NCBI GenBank assembly: GCA_937125225.1
Contig: CAKZLE010000035.1
Location: 76,705-140,704, forward strand
DNA length: 64,000 nucleotides
From: an uncultured Spirochaetia bacterium
GTDB taxonomy: Bacteria; Spirochaetota; Spirochaetia; CAKZLE01
Direction of reading: 5' to 3'
The notes beneath the pieces are model-generated. The model searched no databases, had not been told where the DNA came from, and was given only the letters and a program-made list of their open reading frames with translations. The position numbers and the translations under genes were made by a program. The first letter of the stretch is position 1. Each line of letters starts with the position of its first letter. Below are positions 9,500-15,206 of the stretch, piece after piece.

Positions 9500-10192
9500 A
9501 TGAGTCTATTTATTAGAGTCTGCCCCATCTGTGGAAATCATATACCTCAACGAACGCCGGTATGTCCGAAATGCTTTCAAAGGATTAAAAGTGAATCCCT
9601 ATATTTATCATTTCTCAATACTTGTAATAGATGTGGTATGCCTTTGTTGGCCAAAGAATTCAGTTGTCCACGATGTAGAGATAAAGAAGATTTAGAAAAT
9701 ACCTGTTTCAGCCAATCCTTCTCACAGTATGAGGGGCTAATAAAACGCGTAATAAAACACTATAAATTCCAGGGAGATCGGACACTCCATATTCTATTTT
9801 GTGATTTGTTCGAATTGATGCTCGAAAAATATAAACAAGAATCTTATACGTTAGTCCCAGTCCCTTGTTCATTGAGTTCCTATAAGAGAAGAGGTTGGGA
9901 TCAGATGAAGGTTATATCAGATGAGATGAAAAGACGGGGTTATCCTGTATTTGAGGCAATATCGAGAGAGAATCGAGATATTGAACTCAAAAAAATGGCC
10001 AAAAGTGAAAGAGATGAAACTATTGATGGATTATATTATCTTGATAAGAAAGAGGTGAGCAGGCCCTCTCAGAGCCTTTTGATCATTATAGATGATGTAA
10101 TAACTACAGGAACCACATTAAGATACATACGAGATATGTTGTATTCAGTGTATGGGGGACAAATAATAGGGATGTCTATCGTTATGGATTGA
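9500..10192 (+). CDS. comFC: ComF/ComFC-family phosphoribosyltransferase with N-terminal double zinc ribbon
   Basis: CPICGNHIP...CPKC and CNRCG...CPRC zinc-ribbon cysteines, followed by the PRTase motif LLIIIDDVITTGTT. Confidence 0.7.
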   Translation: MSLFIRVCPICGNHIPQRTPVCPKCFQRIKSESLYLSFLNTCNRCGMPLLAKEFSCPRCRDKEDLENTCFSQSFSQYEGLIKRVIKHYKFQGDRTLHILFCDLFELMLEKYKQESYTLVPVPCSLSSYKRRGWDQMKVISDEMKRRGYPVFEAISRENRDIELKKMAKSERDETIDGLYYLDKKEVSRPSQSLLIIIDDVITTGTTLRYIRDMLYSVYGGQIIGMSIVMD

Positions 10193-10278
10193 CTAATATA
10201 GCTCTAATTGTTATAAATAGATATCAGATAAACACGGTTTTCTGGAGTCGATTGTTCGGCTCCTTTTTTAATGGGATT

Positions 10279-10743
10279 ATGATAAGAAACGAATTAAAAG
10301 ATAAAGAGCTGTATAAACAATTAGCGCCACTACTTCTCAATATAGGCATGAAGATCATTGAGATCTCTGAATATGAGAAAGATGGACGCTGTACCATCCG
10401 TTTGGTCATTCAATCACAGAATGACAACACCACGATTAAAGATTGTACTTCGGTACATAAGATCGCTTTTCCTCGTCTAGAACTACTGAGAAACTCTCGT
10501 GATGTATACCTTGAGGTATCAACACCTGGAATCCAGCGTCCGATCAAAGATGTAGGTGAATTCAATGCTTTCATTGGTAAGGATGTTAGAATCCTTTCCG
10601 GTGAAGACTGGGTCGATGGATTGCTTCTCCTAGCCGATGAGCAGAAGATCACGATCAAGAAAGCAGAAGATGAAGAGCAGGACATTCTTTATAACACGAT
10701 TAAAAGAGCTAAGCTCGTATACAATTGGGAGGATAAGAAATAA
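10279..10743 (+). CDS. rimP: Ribosome maturation factor RimP
   Basis: Lies immediately upstream of nusA (1-nt stop/start overlap) and carries the RimP core ...YLEVSTPGIQRPIKDVGEFNAFIGKDVRI.... The ORF track extends it to a TTG at 10189, which adds a non-RimP-like N-terminus, so the ATG at 10279 is preferred. Confidence 0.6.
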   Translation: MIRNELKDKELYKQLAPLLLNIGMKIIEISEYEKDGRCTIRLVIQSQNDNTTIKDCTSVHKIAFPRLELLRNSRDVYLEVSTPGIQRPIKDVGEFNAFIGKDVRILSGEDWVDGLLLLADEQKITIKKAEDEEQDILYNTIKRAKLVYNWEDKK

Positions 10744-12179
10744 TGGCCACAGGATTGAAAGATGCAATTCGAAGCCTTGTTAATGATCGAGGGATTTCAG
10801 AAGAGCTTATCCAGAGAACTATAGAAGAGTTCCTGTTAGCAGCCTATAAAAGGAAATTCGGCACAGTAGAGAATGCTGTAGTCATCTTCAGTGAAGATGG
10901 TGAAGATGTTGCTCTATATGCTAAGAAGACCATTGTCGAGGATCTCGAAGATGAAGTATTGGAGATCACGTTAGAGGATTCTCTCAAGTTCAATGATGAT
11001 TGTGAGATTGGTGATGAACTGCTCATAGATATAGATCCTAAAGAGTTCGATCGAATCGCTGTTCAGACTGCAAAGCAGAAGGCGAAACAGACTCTTAGAG
11101 ATATTCAGAAAGATACACTTTATTCAGAATTCAAAGGTAAAGAGGGTGAGATGATCATCGGATACTACCAGAGAGAAAAGAATGGAGAAATCTTTATAGA
11201 TCTTGGAAAGACCGAAGGTGTGATGCCTAAGCGTTTTCAGTCACCTCGAGAGGTTTATAGACTTAACGATAGAATCAAATGTCTGGTTCAGAGTGTTGAG
11301 AAAGGTAATACGGGTCTTAGGATCACCCTTTCGAGAACTCATACAGAATTTGTTGCAAAATTATTCGAAATTGAAGTTCCTGAAGTCTATGATAAGACTA
11401 TAGATATTCAAAAGATGGTTAGAGAGCCTGGTTATAGGACTAAGCTTGCCGTACATACCAATAGAGATGACATCGATCCAGTAGGGGCATGTGTCGGACT
11501 AAAGGGTGTTAGGATACAGACTATCGTTAGAGAACTCGAAGGCGAGAAAATAGATGTCCTCAGGTATGAGGTCAACCCTATTGAATATATCAAAAATGCC
11601 CTTTCACCTGCAGAGGTAAAGAGTGTATATATCCTAGATGAAGGTAAGAGAACGGCTCTAGCAGTCGTTGATGAAAGCCAGCTTTCTCTTGCTATCGGTA
11701 AACAGGGACTCAACGTACGATTAGCCAATCGGCTCGTTGACTGGAATATCGATGTAAAGACTGAAGAACAGTTCAGTGAAATGGATATAGCTATAGAGAC
11801 TAAACGAGAACTTGAAGCTCTCTTTACAGATGATTCAGATGATGGTGAGATCACCAATATCGCAGAGTTGCCGGGTCTTGAAGAACGATTGATTTCTTTC
11901 CTCGATCAGAATAACATTGTATTGATCGAAGACTATATAAATAGTAGTGAAGAGGATCTGCTCAGTATCCCTGGGATCACTAAGGAAGATCTGGAATCAA
12001 TCAACTCTATCTTAAACGAATATGTTGATATCGTTGAAGAAGAGGCTCAAGATGAAGAGTATATTGAGACTTTTGAATGCCCCGAGTGTGGCCATGAGAT
12101 AACATCAGATATGGATACTTGTCCAAATTGTGGTGTTGGGTTGAGTTTTGAGGTCGAAGAGGTAATAGAGGGAGAATAA
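10743..12179 (+). CDS. nusA: Transcription termination/antitermination factor NusA, with a C-terminal C4 zinc ribbon
   Basis: NusA N-terminal domain, S1 and tandem KH regions (...GACVGLKGVRIQTIVRELEGEKIDV..., ...LAIGKQGLNVRLANRL...). The C-terminus is FECPECGHEITSDMDTCPNCG. Confidence 0.9.
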   Translation: MATGLKDAIRSLVNDRGISEELIQRTIEEFLLAAYKRKFGTVENAVVIFSEDGEDVALYAKKTIVEDLEDEVLEITLEDSLKFNDDCEIGDELLIDIDPKEFDRIAVQTAKQKAKQTLRDIQKDTLYSEFKGKEGEMIIGYYQREKNGEIFIDLGKTEGVMPKRFQSPREVYRLNDRIKCLVQSVEKGNTGLRITLSRTHTEFVAKLFEIEVPEVYDKTIDIQKMVREPGYRTKLAVHTNRDDIDPVGACVGLKGVRIQTIVRELEGEKIDVLRYEVNPIEYIKNALSPAEVKSVYILDEGKRTALAVVDESQLSLAIGKQGLNVRLANRLVDWNIDVKTEEQFSEMDIAIETKRELEALFTDDSDDGEITNIAELPGLEERLISFLDQNNIVLIEDYINSSEEDLLSIPGITKEDLESINSILNEYVDIVEEEAQDEEYIETFECPECGHEITSDMDTCPNCGVGLSFEVEEVIEGE

Positions 12180-15100
12180 TTGGACAATAATATGACTGAA
12201 GATAATATGAATAAAAAACCCAAAGCGACACTTATCAAGCATAAGAAGGGCTCTGAAAACTCTCACAAGGCTGCAGCTGAAGACACGAATATTCAGAATC
12301 AGTCTCATGTGGTAGAAAAGAAGAAAGTCGTAGTAGTCAAGAAGAAGAAAGTCGTTGTGAAGCGACCAGTAAGTCACCATCAGGAAGATAAACCTGTTGC
12401 TAAAGAACAACCAAAAGAAGAAACCAAGACAACAGTTCCTTCTAGACCACAAGCAGATAGACCTCCTCAACAAAAGAGTGCACCACAATCTGGAACTCCA
12501 ACAGCACCTCCAAGACCAAGTGCTAACACCTCTGAACAACCAAGAACTCAGGCTCAGCAGCCACAAAGCAATGATCGCTACAGAGGTAGAGATCAGCAGG
12601 GTACAGAGCAGAGACGACCATATAATAATAATCAGAATAGAACTGGTGGATACAATCAGGAACGAACTGGGGGGTATAATCAGAATAGACCCGCAGCTGG
12701 TGGTACTGGCCAGGAACGTACCGGTGGCTATAACCAAAACAGAACTGGTGGTTATAATAATAACCGTCAGGGTGGATACAATCAGGAACGAACTGGGGGG
12801 TATAATCAAAATAGACCCGCAGCTGGTGGGACTGGTCAGGAACGTACCGGTGGCTATAACCAAAACAGAACTGGTGGATATAATCAGAACAGACCTGCTG
12901 GTGGAAACACTGGTGATCGAACTGGTGGCTATAACCAAAATAGAACTGGTGGATATAATCAGGATCGTACCGGTGGATACAACCAAAATCGAACTGGTAG
13001 CTATAATCAGAACAGACCTGCTGGTGGAAACACTGGAGATCGACCTGGTGGCTATAATCAGAACAGACCTGCTGGTGGAAACACTGGAGATCGACCTGGT
13101 GGATATAACCAGAATCGAACTGGTGGATATAACCAGAATCGAACTGGTGGATATAACCAGAATCGAACTGGTGGATATAACCAGAATAGACCTGCAGGTA
13201 GTGGGAATACTCAAAATAGACCTGGTGGAAGACCCCCCTATAACAGTCAGCGTCCTGGACAGAGGCCTGGTGGTAATGCTGGTGGTTCTAGAAAACCTTT
13301 TAATTCAACTTCTCCATCTATCGATGATGGTAAAAAGACAATAAAAAAAGTTTTTAAAACTAAGAGTAAGAAGAATTATCAGAAGAATAGAAAATTCGAA
13401 AATCGGGAAAAAGATTTCCAGATCAAGAAGAAAACTGTTATTCGTGCAAATCCCGTACCGAAGAAGATCGACATCATGGAGGTCATCACTGTATCGGAAT
13501 TGGCAAAGAAGATGAACTTGAAGGCATCAGAACTCATCGCAAAACTGATGCAGATGGGTATGATGGTTACGATAAATCAGCAGATAGATGCTGAGACTGC
13601 AACAATCATAGCGTCAGAGTATGAGTGTGTTGTTAATATTGTCTCTCTTTATGATGAGACTGTAATCGAGACTGCAAAAGATGTTGAATCTGAACTTAAA
13701 GCAAGACCCCCTATCGTCACTGTCATGGGGCATGTCGACCATGGAAAGACAAAGTTACTTGATGCAATTCGAGAGACCAATGTGGTTGATGGTGAGTTCG
13801 GTGGTATTACCCAGCATATTGGTGCCTACACAGTCGCTACTGATCATGGTGATGTAGTATTCTTGGATACACCAGGACACTCTGCTTTTACCTTGATGAG
13901 AGCCCGTGGTGCCCAGGTTACAGATATTGTCATCTTAGTGGTTGCTGCAAACGATGGAGTAATGCCACAGACGGTCGAGGCAATTGACCATGCTAAAGAG
14001 GCAGGAGTTCCGATAATCGTTGCTGTAAACAAAATAGATCTTCCTGAATCGAATATTGATAGAGTAAAACAACAACTTTCTGAATATGAATTGTTGCCTG
14101 AAGACTGGGGTGGAAGTACTCTTTTCTGTGAGATTTCAGCCTTGAAAAAAGAAGGTATCGATGAACTCGTAGAAAGTATCCTCCTTCAATCTGAAATGCT
14201 GGAACTAACAGCAACATATGATTGTAAAGCTGAAGGTAGAATCATCGAGTCTAAGGTTGATCATGGACGAGGTATCGTCTCTACAGTAATTATACAGCGA
14301 GGTACCCTTAAGATCGGAGATCCGTTCATTGCTGGAGTATATCCAGGAAAAGTACGAGCGATGTTCAATGATAAGGGCCAAAAAATAGATATAGCAACAC
14401 CTGCTACACCGGTAGAGATTCTTGGTTTTACCGGGATCCCTAGTGCGGGTGCTCCATTCCAAGGGACTGATAATGACAGACAGGCTAGACAGGTTGGTGC
14501 TAAGCGACAAGAGTTAGAACGACTTGGTGAAGCTCAGAATGTGAAGAAAATAACTCTTGATAACCTCTTTGACTCTATTCAGGATGGAGAGGTTCAGGAA
14601 CTGAAAGTAGTAATCAAAGGTGATGTGCATGGTTCTGTTGAGGCTTTACAGAGTTCTTTGGAGAAATTATCTACCAAGGATATTCGATTGCATGTGATTC
14701 ATGCATCAGCAGGAGCTATCATAGAAAATGATATCAACCTTGCCGTAGCATCTAACGCCATTGTAATCGGATTCAATGTAAGACCAACACCTAAAGCTCA
14801 ACTTTTGGCAGATCGTGAAAAGATCGATATCAGAAAATACAATATCATTTATGATGTTGTAGATGATATCAAACTTGCTATGGAAGGTATGTTATCTCCA
14901 GAGCTCAAAGAAGAAGTCATTGGTCAGGTTGAAGTACGTGAGACATTCAAAGTTCCTAAGATCGGTCTTATCGCTGGTTGTTATGTACTAGATGGAAAGG
15001 TCAAAAGAAATGCTACAGCTAATATCATCAGAGATGGTATTAAGATATACACTGGTAAAGTGACTTCACTCAGACGTTTTAAAGATGATGCAAAAGAAGT

Positions 15101-15206
15101 TGCTGCAGGTTATGAATGTGGTATGGGACTCGAGAACTATCAGGATCTAAAGGTTGGAGACATCTTTGAGATCATCGAGATAGTTGAGGTAGCCAAGAAG
15201 CTCTAA
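12180..15206 (+). CDS. infB: Translation initiation factor IF-2, with a long N-terminal low-complexity (GGYNQNRT)n repeat region
   Basis: G-domain VTVMGHVDHGKTKLLD...DTPGH...NKID, with C-terminal beta-barrel domains. GGAG lies 5 nt upstream of the TTG start. The N-terminal ~350 aa are K-rich and then carry an RGG/QN repeat. Confidence 0.9.
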   Translation: MDNNMTEDNMNKKPKATLIKHKKGSENSHKAAAEDTNIQNQSHVVEKKKVVVVKKKKVVVKRPVSHHQEDKPVAKEQPKEETKTTVPSRPQADRPPQQKSAPQSGTPTAPPRPSANTSEQPRTQAQQPQSNDRYRGRDQQGTEQRRPYNNNQNRTGGYNQERTGGYNQNRPAAGGTGQERTGGYNQNRTGGYNNNRQGGYNQERTGGYNQNRPAAGGTGQERTGGYNQNRTGGYNQNRPAGGNTGDRTGGYNQNRTGGYNQDRTGGYNQNRTGSYNQNRPAGGNTGDRPGGYNQNRPAGGNTGDRPGGYNQNRTGGYNQNRTGGYNQNRTGGYNQNRPAGSGNTQNRPGGRPPYNSQRPGQRPGGNAGGSRKPFNSTSPSIDDGKKTIKKVFKTKSKKNYQKNRKFENREKDFQIKKKTVIRANPVPKKIDIMEVITVSELAKKMNLKASELIAKLMQMGMMVTINQQIDAETATIIASEYECVVNIVSLYDETVIETAKDVESELKARPPIVTVMGHVDHGKTKLLDAIRETNVVDGEFGGITQHIGAYTVATDHGDVVFLDTPGHSAFTLMRARGAQVTDIVILVVAANDGVMPQTVEAIDHAKEAGVPIIVAVNKIDLPESNIDRVKQQLSEYELLPEDWGGSTLFCEISALKKEGIDELVESILLQSEMLELTATYDCKAEGRIIESKVDHGRGIVSTVIIQRGTLKIGDPFIAGVYPGKVRAMFNDKGQKIDIATPATPVEILGFTGIPSAGAPFQGTDNDRQARQVGAKRQELERLGEAQNVKKITLDNLFDSIQDGEVQELKVVIKGDVHGSVEALQSSLEKLSTKDIRLHVIHASAGAIIENDINLAVASNAIVIGFNVRPTPKAQLLADREKIDIRKYNIIYDVVDDIKLAMEGMLSPELKEEVIGQVEVRETFKVPKIGLIAGCYVLDGKVKRNATANIIRDGIKIYTGKVTSLRRFKDDAKEVAAGYECGMGLENYQDLKVGDIFEIIEIVEVAKKL

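Follow-up and report, generated by a model that had tools for sequence, protein, structure and literature searches.

A Tyr/Arg-rich tandem-repeat tract of strain-variable copy number in the predicted disordered extension of a spirochaetal translation initiation factor IF-2

The N-terminal extension of translation initiation factor 2 (IF-2), the product of infB, in an uncultured Spirochaetia bacterium carries a tract of short tandem repeats whose unit number appears to be labile between closely related strains, whereas the amino acid pattern of the unit appears to be conserved. The gene lies in the 64,000-nucleotide (nt) stretch of contig CAKZLE010000035.1 that was analysed, hereafter the window, to which all coordinates refer. 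The tract is likely (probability of roughly 0.6, argued by analogy with characterised disordered regions) to act as a cationic array of Tyr and Arg stickers that binds RNA and self-associates. An earlier note made from the letters of this DNA, hereafter the original prediction, had placed a repeat in the N-terminal region of IF-2, and the repeat does lie there, at 12618-13220 inside infB (12192-15206).

When the translation is split at each Arg, the tract resolves into 24 units over 603 nt (201 residues). These include 17 octads of the form xGGYNQxR, one degenerate octad (PYNNNQNR) and six units of 9-10 residues (PAAGGTGQER, two copies; PAGGNTGDR, three; PAGSGNTQNR, one), so that the approximately 25 copies of an eight-residue unit counted originally are reduced to 17-18 octads accompanied by longer units. 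The unit lengths of 24, 27 and 30 nt are all multiples of three and the units are arranged head-to-tail, as in a coding tandem repeat. Tandem Repeats Finder (TRF), a tool of the kind recommended with the original prediction, recovers the 24-nt period in 14 copies (12849-13194, score 254) and also higher-order repeats with periods of 51, 126 and 174 nt, which score 226-539. The description 'near-perfect' holds for the four octads at 13095-13190 and not for the array as a whole, across which the 24-nt period matches at 69-75%. The four-octad segment contains the longest exact direct repeat (68 nt) and three exact copies of the 24-mer GGATATAACCAGAATCGAACTGGT, at 13101, 13125 and 13149, where four copies had been reported. 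With up to three mismatches allowed, this 24-mer has five matches against 0.00 expected from 100 shuffles, and a chance origin of the repeat is excluded.

The recurring motif of the tract is R-x-G-G-Y, with 16 occurrences of R.GG and 16 of GGY. Neither RGG nor RG occurs, so the label 'RGG' given to the tract has to be dropped, and the clustered RGG or RG motifs of an RGG/RG-type RNA-binding region are absent. The tract consists of 25% Gly and 31% Asn plus Gln, with 24 Arg, 18 Tyr (9%), four Asp and four Glu (16% charged residues, net charge +16), and is devoid of Lys, Ile, Leu, Val and Met. Arg stands four residues after Tyr in 17 of 18 cases, and successive Arg residues are spaced by 8-10 residues.

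At the nucleotide level, every 24-nt unit contains an inverted repeat of 5 bp, CTGGT...ACCAG, which comes from the Thr-Gly and Asn-Gln codons. The RNA of the tract folds better than its shuffles (z = -3.7), which is attributed to this inverted repeat. The inverted repeat is absent in a GC-richer sister species described below, and the folding is probably an incidental by-product of the Thr-Gly and Asn-Gln codons; hairpins in the units could, moreover, favour slippage. No Rfam family was matched on either strand between 9000 and 18000.

The peptide encoded by the array appears to be under purifying selection, with its copy number left free. Pairwise comparison of the 17 octads gives proportions of synonymous and nonsynonymous differences of pS = 0.66 and pN = 0.08, a descriptive pN/pS of 0.12. 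Residues G2, Y4, N5 and R8 are invariant in all 17 octads, with two to four codons in use at each of these positions. The closest species, referred to here as the sister species, is represented by a 4.3-Mb contig (L081/L084) and has a 75% identical IF-2 with GC-richer codons. Its array is built from a 48-nt SGGYNQDR-SGGYNQNR unit repeated seven times and followed by PGGYNQNR units, with no PAGGNTGDR, and the octad consensus xGGYNQ(N/D)R is kept despite this different architecture.

Copy number differs at the strain level in two pairs of loci. The 90%-identity cluster of the window IF-2 has a second member (P0129, 1037 residues), which is identical to it except for 33 extra residues, PAGGNTGDR PGGYNQNR TGGYNQNR TGGYNQNR. 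The corresponding locus (L082), a MEGAHIT contig from ERR2094169, shows no mismatch to the window infB in 3015 nt and carries one in-frame insertion of four units (99 nt) at about 13095, the exact placement within the repeat being ambiguous. The flanks are 99.85% identical over 11 kb and 99.26% identical over 12.5 kb; as they are not fully identical, the window and L082 represent different genomes of one species. Both are metagenome assemblies, at least one of them from short reads. The second pair consists of two sister-species contigs from the same sample, ERZ21878204 (L083 and L084; ctg9584l and ctg9586c), which are 97.75% identical over 22.8 kb. One octad is gained (+24 nt) in one sub-array of infB and one is lost (-24 nt) in another, and the 42 substitutions in the gene, seven of them within the disordered region, are all synonymous. 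Both contigs are multi-megabase and one is apparently circular; the form of their names (ctg...c and ctg...l) suggests a long-read assembler. The strain variability that had been anticipated is thus borne out by both pairs, but it is confined to the copy number; the term 'hypervariable' does not fit the sequence, given the low pN/pS and the wholly synonymous strain-level changes. A scan of metagenome contigs for more strain variants, using the non-repetitive N-terminal 150 residues, gave 351 pattern matches with none confirmed, and a scan of genome contigs gave a best match of 65-68% identity without returning the window's own species. An exact look-up of the window's own protein (P0001) in the contig index gave no record.

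The host protein carries the full Pfam domain set of IF-2, namely IF2_N (residues 433-482, 7.3e-18), GTP_EFTU (512-668, 6e-35), IF-2 (785-898, 5e-42), EF-G_D2 (2e-21) and GTP_EFTU_D2 (1e-7), and the P-loop GHVDHGKT is invariant in a 62-sequence alignment. AlphaFold2 (AF2), supplied with the same number of aligned sequences, assigns predicted local distance difference test (pLDDT) scores below 50 and no secondary structure to residues 1-343 and 345-418, while most means over 10-residue blocks are 84-93 in the core (about 421-1004), which serves as an internal positive control. The tract is therefore predicted to lie within a disordered extension, about 420 residues long, that consists of a Lys-rich segment, a P/Q/T-rich spacer, the array and a basic Lys-rich linker. 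Such a long segment of predicted disorder preceding the GTPase (G) domain is what is understood by an IF-2 N-terminal disordered region.

Disordered N-terminal regions of IF-2 are found throughout bacteria and have a median length of 320 residues (PMC11838494). In Escherichia coli and Caulobacter crescentus they drive RNA-dependent, salt-sensitive condensation, which in E. coli becomes stronger in the cold, and E. coli needs the region to grow at 15 degrees C (PMC11838494). Among about 800 homologues, the extensions have been described as disordered, droplet-prone and lineage-specific, under selection that is relaxed and locally purifying (PMC12919033). Spirochaetes, Tyr/Arg repeats and tandem arrays are mentioned in neither PMC11838494 nor PMC12919033. 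The spirochaete extension resembles those of E. coli and Caulobacter in belonging to the same protein, in its position before IF2_N and the G domain, in predicted disorder, in lineage-specific length and sequence and in being dispensable for the catalytic core; it differs in that its tract is a periodic Gly/Asn/Gln/Tyr/Arg array with no Lys and few acidic residues. The extreme N-terminus of E. coli IF-2 (N1 and two beta-strands) binds the KH2/AR1 part of NusA (PMC12297416), whereas the spirochaete IF-2 has no such NusA-binding N1 (IF2_N) subdomain at its extreme N-terminus. The RNA-contacting or phase-separating role suggested in the original prediction fits the E. coli and Caulobacter experiments, which concern regions of a different composition (PMC11838494).

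A tandem repeat in infB is also known from the same phylum. In Borrelia afzelii and B. burgdorferi, a 33-bp unit is present in 6.2-12.2 copies among six strains, and no functional interpretation is offered there (PMC4370689). That repeat is likewise in frame and strain-variable in copy number but has a unit of 33 bp (11 residues) against 24-30 bp here, the comparison being one of unit length and not of unit sequence. Thus, the composition of the present tract is new, but a variable, disordered IF-2 extension with tandem repeats is already known and the tract is no new kind of element.

In composition, the nearest analogue is provided by the PQGGYQQYN repeats of Sup35 (eRF3) (PMC3679450), which also combine G-G-Y with Gln/Asn in tandem, are disordered, precede a translational GTPase and are followed by a charged Lys-rich linker. 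The Sup35 repeats are, however, nearly uncharged, amyloid-forming and five in number, whereas the units described here end in Arg (net charge +16) and number about 24. In the low-complexity and RGG regions of the FUS family, Tyr and Arg residues, located in separate domains, provide a sticker-and-spacer grammar of phase separation. The spirochaete tract shares with them roughly equal numbers of Tyr and Arg, set at regular intervals among Gly/polar spacers, and an RNA-associated host, but it interleaves Tyr and Arg in one array, has no RGG or RG and is bacterial, with arginine methylation not expected. In atypical Rho factors, an essential RNA-binding protein bears lineage-specific N/Q/R/G-rich disordered additions, which are frequent in Spirochaetota, the FCB group and Bacillota; two of these additions (in Bacteroides thetaiotaomicron and Clostridium botulinum) have been shown to phase-separate or to behave in a prion-like manner (PMC11347177). 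They differ in the host protein, and their description does not include regular tandem arrays whose copy number changes between strains.

Of the 107 related spirochaete IF-2s whose N-termini could be scored, 37 contain arrays of the GG[YF]-x3-R type, a frequency biased upward for the reason given below. The units are specific to lineages (GGYNQNR, GGYNDNR, GGYNNNR, GGYQGNR, GGYQGRD, GGYQPRD and GGYQGGGQR), and the N-terminal regions of these proteins typically include 15-31 aromatic residues. Other spirochaete IF-2s carry repeats of the RPPYNGSRPQG type. The non-spirochaete IF-2 N-termini surveyed are mostly E/K/A-rich, typically with 35-45% of these residues together; similar arrays are carried by the IF-2 of a Paludibacteraceae genome, where NRQGGYQGNRDN is repeated about 10 times, by that of Paenibacillus xerothermodurans and by those of several members of the Lachnospiraceae and Oscillospiraceae. 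A search with the tract alone in a database of 5.8 billion proteins gave eight matches at E <= 1e-3, so few presumably on account of the HMMER correction for biased composition. Those with a recognisable domain are nucleic-acid-binding proteins, namely ribosomal protein uS3, RluB-like pseudouridine synthases and a single-stranded DNA-binding protein (SSB). Among uS3 relatives of the Oscillospiraceae type, 68 of 120 contain at least three GG[YF] in a C-terminal tail of variable length, a proportion subject to the same upward bias. RxGGYNNNR and GGYNQNR arrays were seen in uS3 tails (P0126-P0248), in RluB-like proteins (P0125/P0128) and in an SSB linker (P0123). It is tentatively suggested, with considerable doubt, that GGY-x3-R arrays constitute a portable bacterial condensation or RNA-binding module, analogous to the Sup35 and FUS regions, that has arisen convergently on IF-2 (in Spirochaetota and some Bacteroidota and Bacillota), uS3, RluB-like proteins and SSB. 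If this were so, unit numbers altered by slippage would supply standing variation, within populations, in the temperature or level of stress that triggers condensation of the translation-initiation machinery.

The role proposed for the tract may be set out as follows. It forms the central part of the predicted disordered IF-2 extension, between the Lys-rich N-terminus and the core of IF2_N, GTPase and C-terminal domains. An in-frame minisatellite of 24-, 27- and 30-nt units, compounded into 51-, 126- and 174-nt higher-order repeats, makes up the array, and near-identical strains would differ in copy number because replication slippage or unequal recombination makes the array grow or shrink. 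Selection appears to keep a single Tyr and a single Arg in each unit, at a distance of four residues, within spacers of Gly, Asn, Gln and Thr. The resulting cationic sticker-and-spacer array may confer a multivalent, low-specificity affinity for RNA (rRNA/30S, mRNA) and may promote self-association of IF-2 or its condensation with RNA, with copy number setting the valency and hence the condensation threshold. Binding to RNA, condensation and an influence of copy number on it are extrapolated from the published IF-2 disordered regions and from the eukaryotic Tyr/Arg grammar.

Several considerations weigh against this interpretation. The tested IF-2 disordered regions belong to Proteobacteria, and the N-termini surveyed outside the spirochaetes are mostly E/K/A-rich; with composition and host group both different, the transfer to a Gly/Asn/Gln/Tyr/Arg array is an analogy. 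Many relatives close by core identity (such as P0013 at 85% and P0022 at 80%) have no GGY array, and IF-2 as such can therefore function without one. The units of one array share a history and are not independent, for which reason the pN/pS ratio is descriptive and does not amount to a formal test. A low pLDDT points to disorder without being proof of it. The searches for relatives and for the uS3, RluB and SSB arrays were seeded with repeat words, and the array frequencies are consequently biased upward; the recurrence of GGY-x3-R arrays is nevertheless real.

The tract could instead be a passive flexible spacer that tethers the N-terminal Lys-rich motif to the core, with only its length and flexibility of consequence and its sequence a neutral product of slippage. 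The free change of copy number between strains would agree with this, as would the presence of other units, or of no aromatic repeats at all, in related spirochaetes. A flexible linker is also reported to join the IF2N domain of E. coli to the core (Laursen et al. 2004, as cited in PMC12297416), and the N-terminal extensions taken as a whole show an omega of about 0.44 (PMC12919033). A neutral spacer should, however, gain amino acid changes as fast as silent ones, in place of which the octads show the low pN/pS given above, with Tyr and Arg among their four invariant positions. The consensus is retained across species that use different codons, the seven substitutions that separate strains within the disordered region are without exception silent, and the Tyr/Arg motif has arisen on unrelated RNA-binding proteins; a mere spacer is accordingly considered rather unlikely. 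Still less probable is a prion-like, amyloid-forming and self-propagating domain comparable to the Sup35 repeats or to the insertion in C. botulinum Rho, even though the GGY and Gln/Asn core resembles the Sup35 PQGGYQQYN, which is also N-terminal to a translational GTPase (PMC3679450), the tract is rich in Asn plus Gln (31%) and Gly (25%) and bacterial prion-like insertions are known in Rho (PMC11347177). The likeness to Sup35 is one of composition without homology, and an Arg in every unit (24 in 201 residues, with 16% charged residues and a net charge of +16) disfavours a dry amyloid core. The maximum of 28 Gln plus Asn per 80 residues also lies below the classical prion-like cut-off of at least 30 in 80, and the tract is not of the Q/N-rich type with few charges, so that the term 'prion-like' used in the original prediction is at most borderline.

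The repeat number, or the 99-nt difference, could also be an artefact of short-read metagenome assembly through collapse or expansion, since L082 is a short-read MEGAHIT contig, the difference falls exactly in the most repetitive 100 nt and the two infB genes are otherwise identical. Against this, the tract was recovered in two assemblies made independently and also in two multi-megabase sister-species contigs, every version is in frame, and an equivalent gain and loss of units is seen in the sister-species strains. The longest exact repeats, 68 nt in the window and 92 nt in L082, are moreover shorter than the k = 127 given in the name of the L082 contig. Collapse of the kind foreseen in the original prediction could account for the 99-nt difference, as short reads underlie one at least of the two assemblies, but with exact repeats of only these lengths an artefact is judged improbable. 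That the tract is a contingency locus for phase variation, or that real overlapping genes occupy its other frames, is scarcely credible. A tandem repeat of variable copy number and long open reading frames (ORFs) in two other frames might invite such readings, but all units (24, 27 and 30 nt) and all observed insertions or deletions (24, 24 and 99 nt) are in frame, which makes on/off switching impossible, and IF-2 is an essential cytoplasmic factor. The overlapping ORFs have no family match, their translations are of extreme low complexity and their existence follows from the stop-free repeat unit; no Rfam match was obtained on either strand. Designation as a phase-variable locus, in which copy number shifts the frame or alters a promoter, was rejected, the tract being internal to the coding sequence.

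The array of Tyr and Arg stickers proposed here is of interest in that IF-2 extensions have been linked to condensates and to cold or stress fitness only recently, and only in proteobacteria (E. coli and Caulobacter). Its valency can be counted, each unit contributing one Tyr and one Arg, the sequence of the unit appears to be selected, and natural alleles differ only in the number of units. With these spirochaete alleles, natural variation could be used to test whether the number of stickers tunes the condensation of an essential bacterial translation factor. In practice, metagenome assemblies of the same species disagree at the tract, which also yields false ORF calls on both strands. The coordinates of the features are collected in Table 1.

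Table 1. Features of infB and its repeat tract, in window coordinates
Feature	Position	Strand	Basis
infB (IF-2) coding sequence	12192-15206	+	ORF list, Pfam, identity to P0001; 1004 residues from ATG 12192
Lys-rich N-terminal segment (residues 1-60 from the ATG) with TLIKH and KKKVVVVKKK	12192-12371	+	alignment of 62 IF-2s, composition
P/Q/T-rich non-repetitive spacer (residues 61-142)	12372-12617	+	composition; unconserved in alignment
Repeat tract, 24 Arg-terminated units	12618-13220	+	TRF, parsing at Arg, composition
126-nt higher-order repeat, two copies (42 residues, five units), 91% identical	12642-12767 and 12768-12893	+	TRF periods 123/126
51-nt higher-order repeat, two copies (PAGGNTGDR and PGGYNQNR), 92% identical	13017-13118	+	TRF period 51, 94% matches
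Four octads with neighbours at most 1 nt apart, youngest part of the array	13095-13190	+	24-mer and repeat analysis
Degenerate end of the array, PGGR PPYNSQR PGQR	13221-13265	+	translation
Basic linker into IF2_N, Gly-rich (GGNAGGS...) then Lys-rich (KKTIKKVFKTKSKKNYQKNRK...FQIKKK...NPVPKK)	13266-13475	+	partly conserved among relatives; composition
IF2_N domain (PF04760)	13476-13625	+	Pfam 7.3e-18; first confidently folded part (AF2)
GTPase (G) domain with GHVDHGKT P-loop	13713-14183	+	Pfam GTP_EFTU 6e-35; invariant columns
Spurious antisense ORF, 369 residues	12105-13214	-	ORF list; low-complexity ISTSS translation; frame analysis
Spurious ORF in the +1 frame of infB, 315 residues	12397-13344	+	ORF list; frame analysis

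The two ORFs that overlap the tract had been given with exact coordinates and dismissed as spurious in the original prediction, a conclusion that is upheld. A Pfam search of both gave no match, and both exist because four of the six frames are free of stops across the tract.

The gene order around infB in the window, rimP-nusA-infB-rbfA-truB-ribF-rpsO-pnp by ORF order, is canonical, and the segment rimP-nusA-infB-rbfA-truB is shared with the four compared loci (L081-L084, labelled by Pfam), which places infB in its usual operon position. An alternative TTG start at 12180, called by the ORF finder and located directly 3' of the nusA stop, would give a protein of 1008 residues. The ATG at 12192 is the likely true start because a 100% identical database protein (P0001) begins MTEDNM and M1 is invariant in 62 relatives.

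Two near-invariant motifs, K-x-T-L-I-K-H (12222-12242, + strand) and KK-x-VVVV-KKK (12318-12347, + strand), are found in the Lys-rich N-terminal segment across the 62 relatives. No structure is assigned to either by AF2, and no copy of N1 (IF2_N) is present at the extreme N-terminus of the spirochaete IF-2. The TLIKH and KKKVVVVKKK motifs could be recognised, as a short linear motif, by a binding partner, for instance NusA or the 30S subunit.

NusA in the window (10743-12179, + strand) ends in a C-terminal zinc ribbon (residues 442-466, PF13248, 1.2e-7, CPECG...CPNCG), where E. coli NusA has the AR1/AR2 pair that binds domain I of IF-2; residues 384-426 give only a weak HhH-like match. The same zinc-ribbon architecture of NusA is found in the sister species (L081-L084). 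The rimP ORF (10189-10743, + strand), read from a TTG, encodes 184 residues, and the gene call on the near-identical contig L082 encodes 154; judging from this comparison, the first 30 codons of the rimP ORF are probably untranslated.

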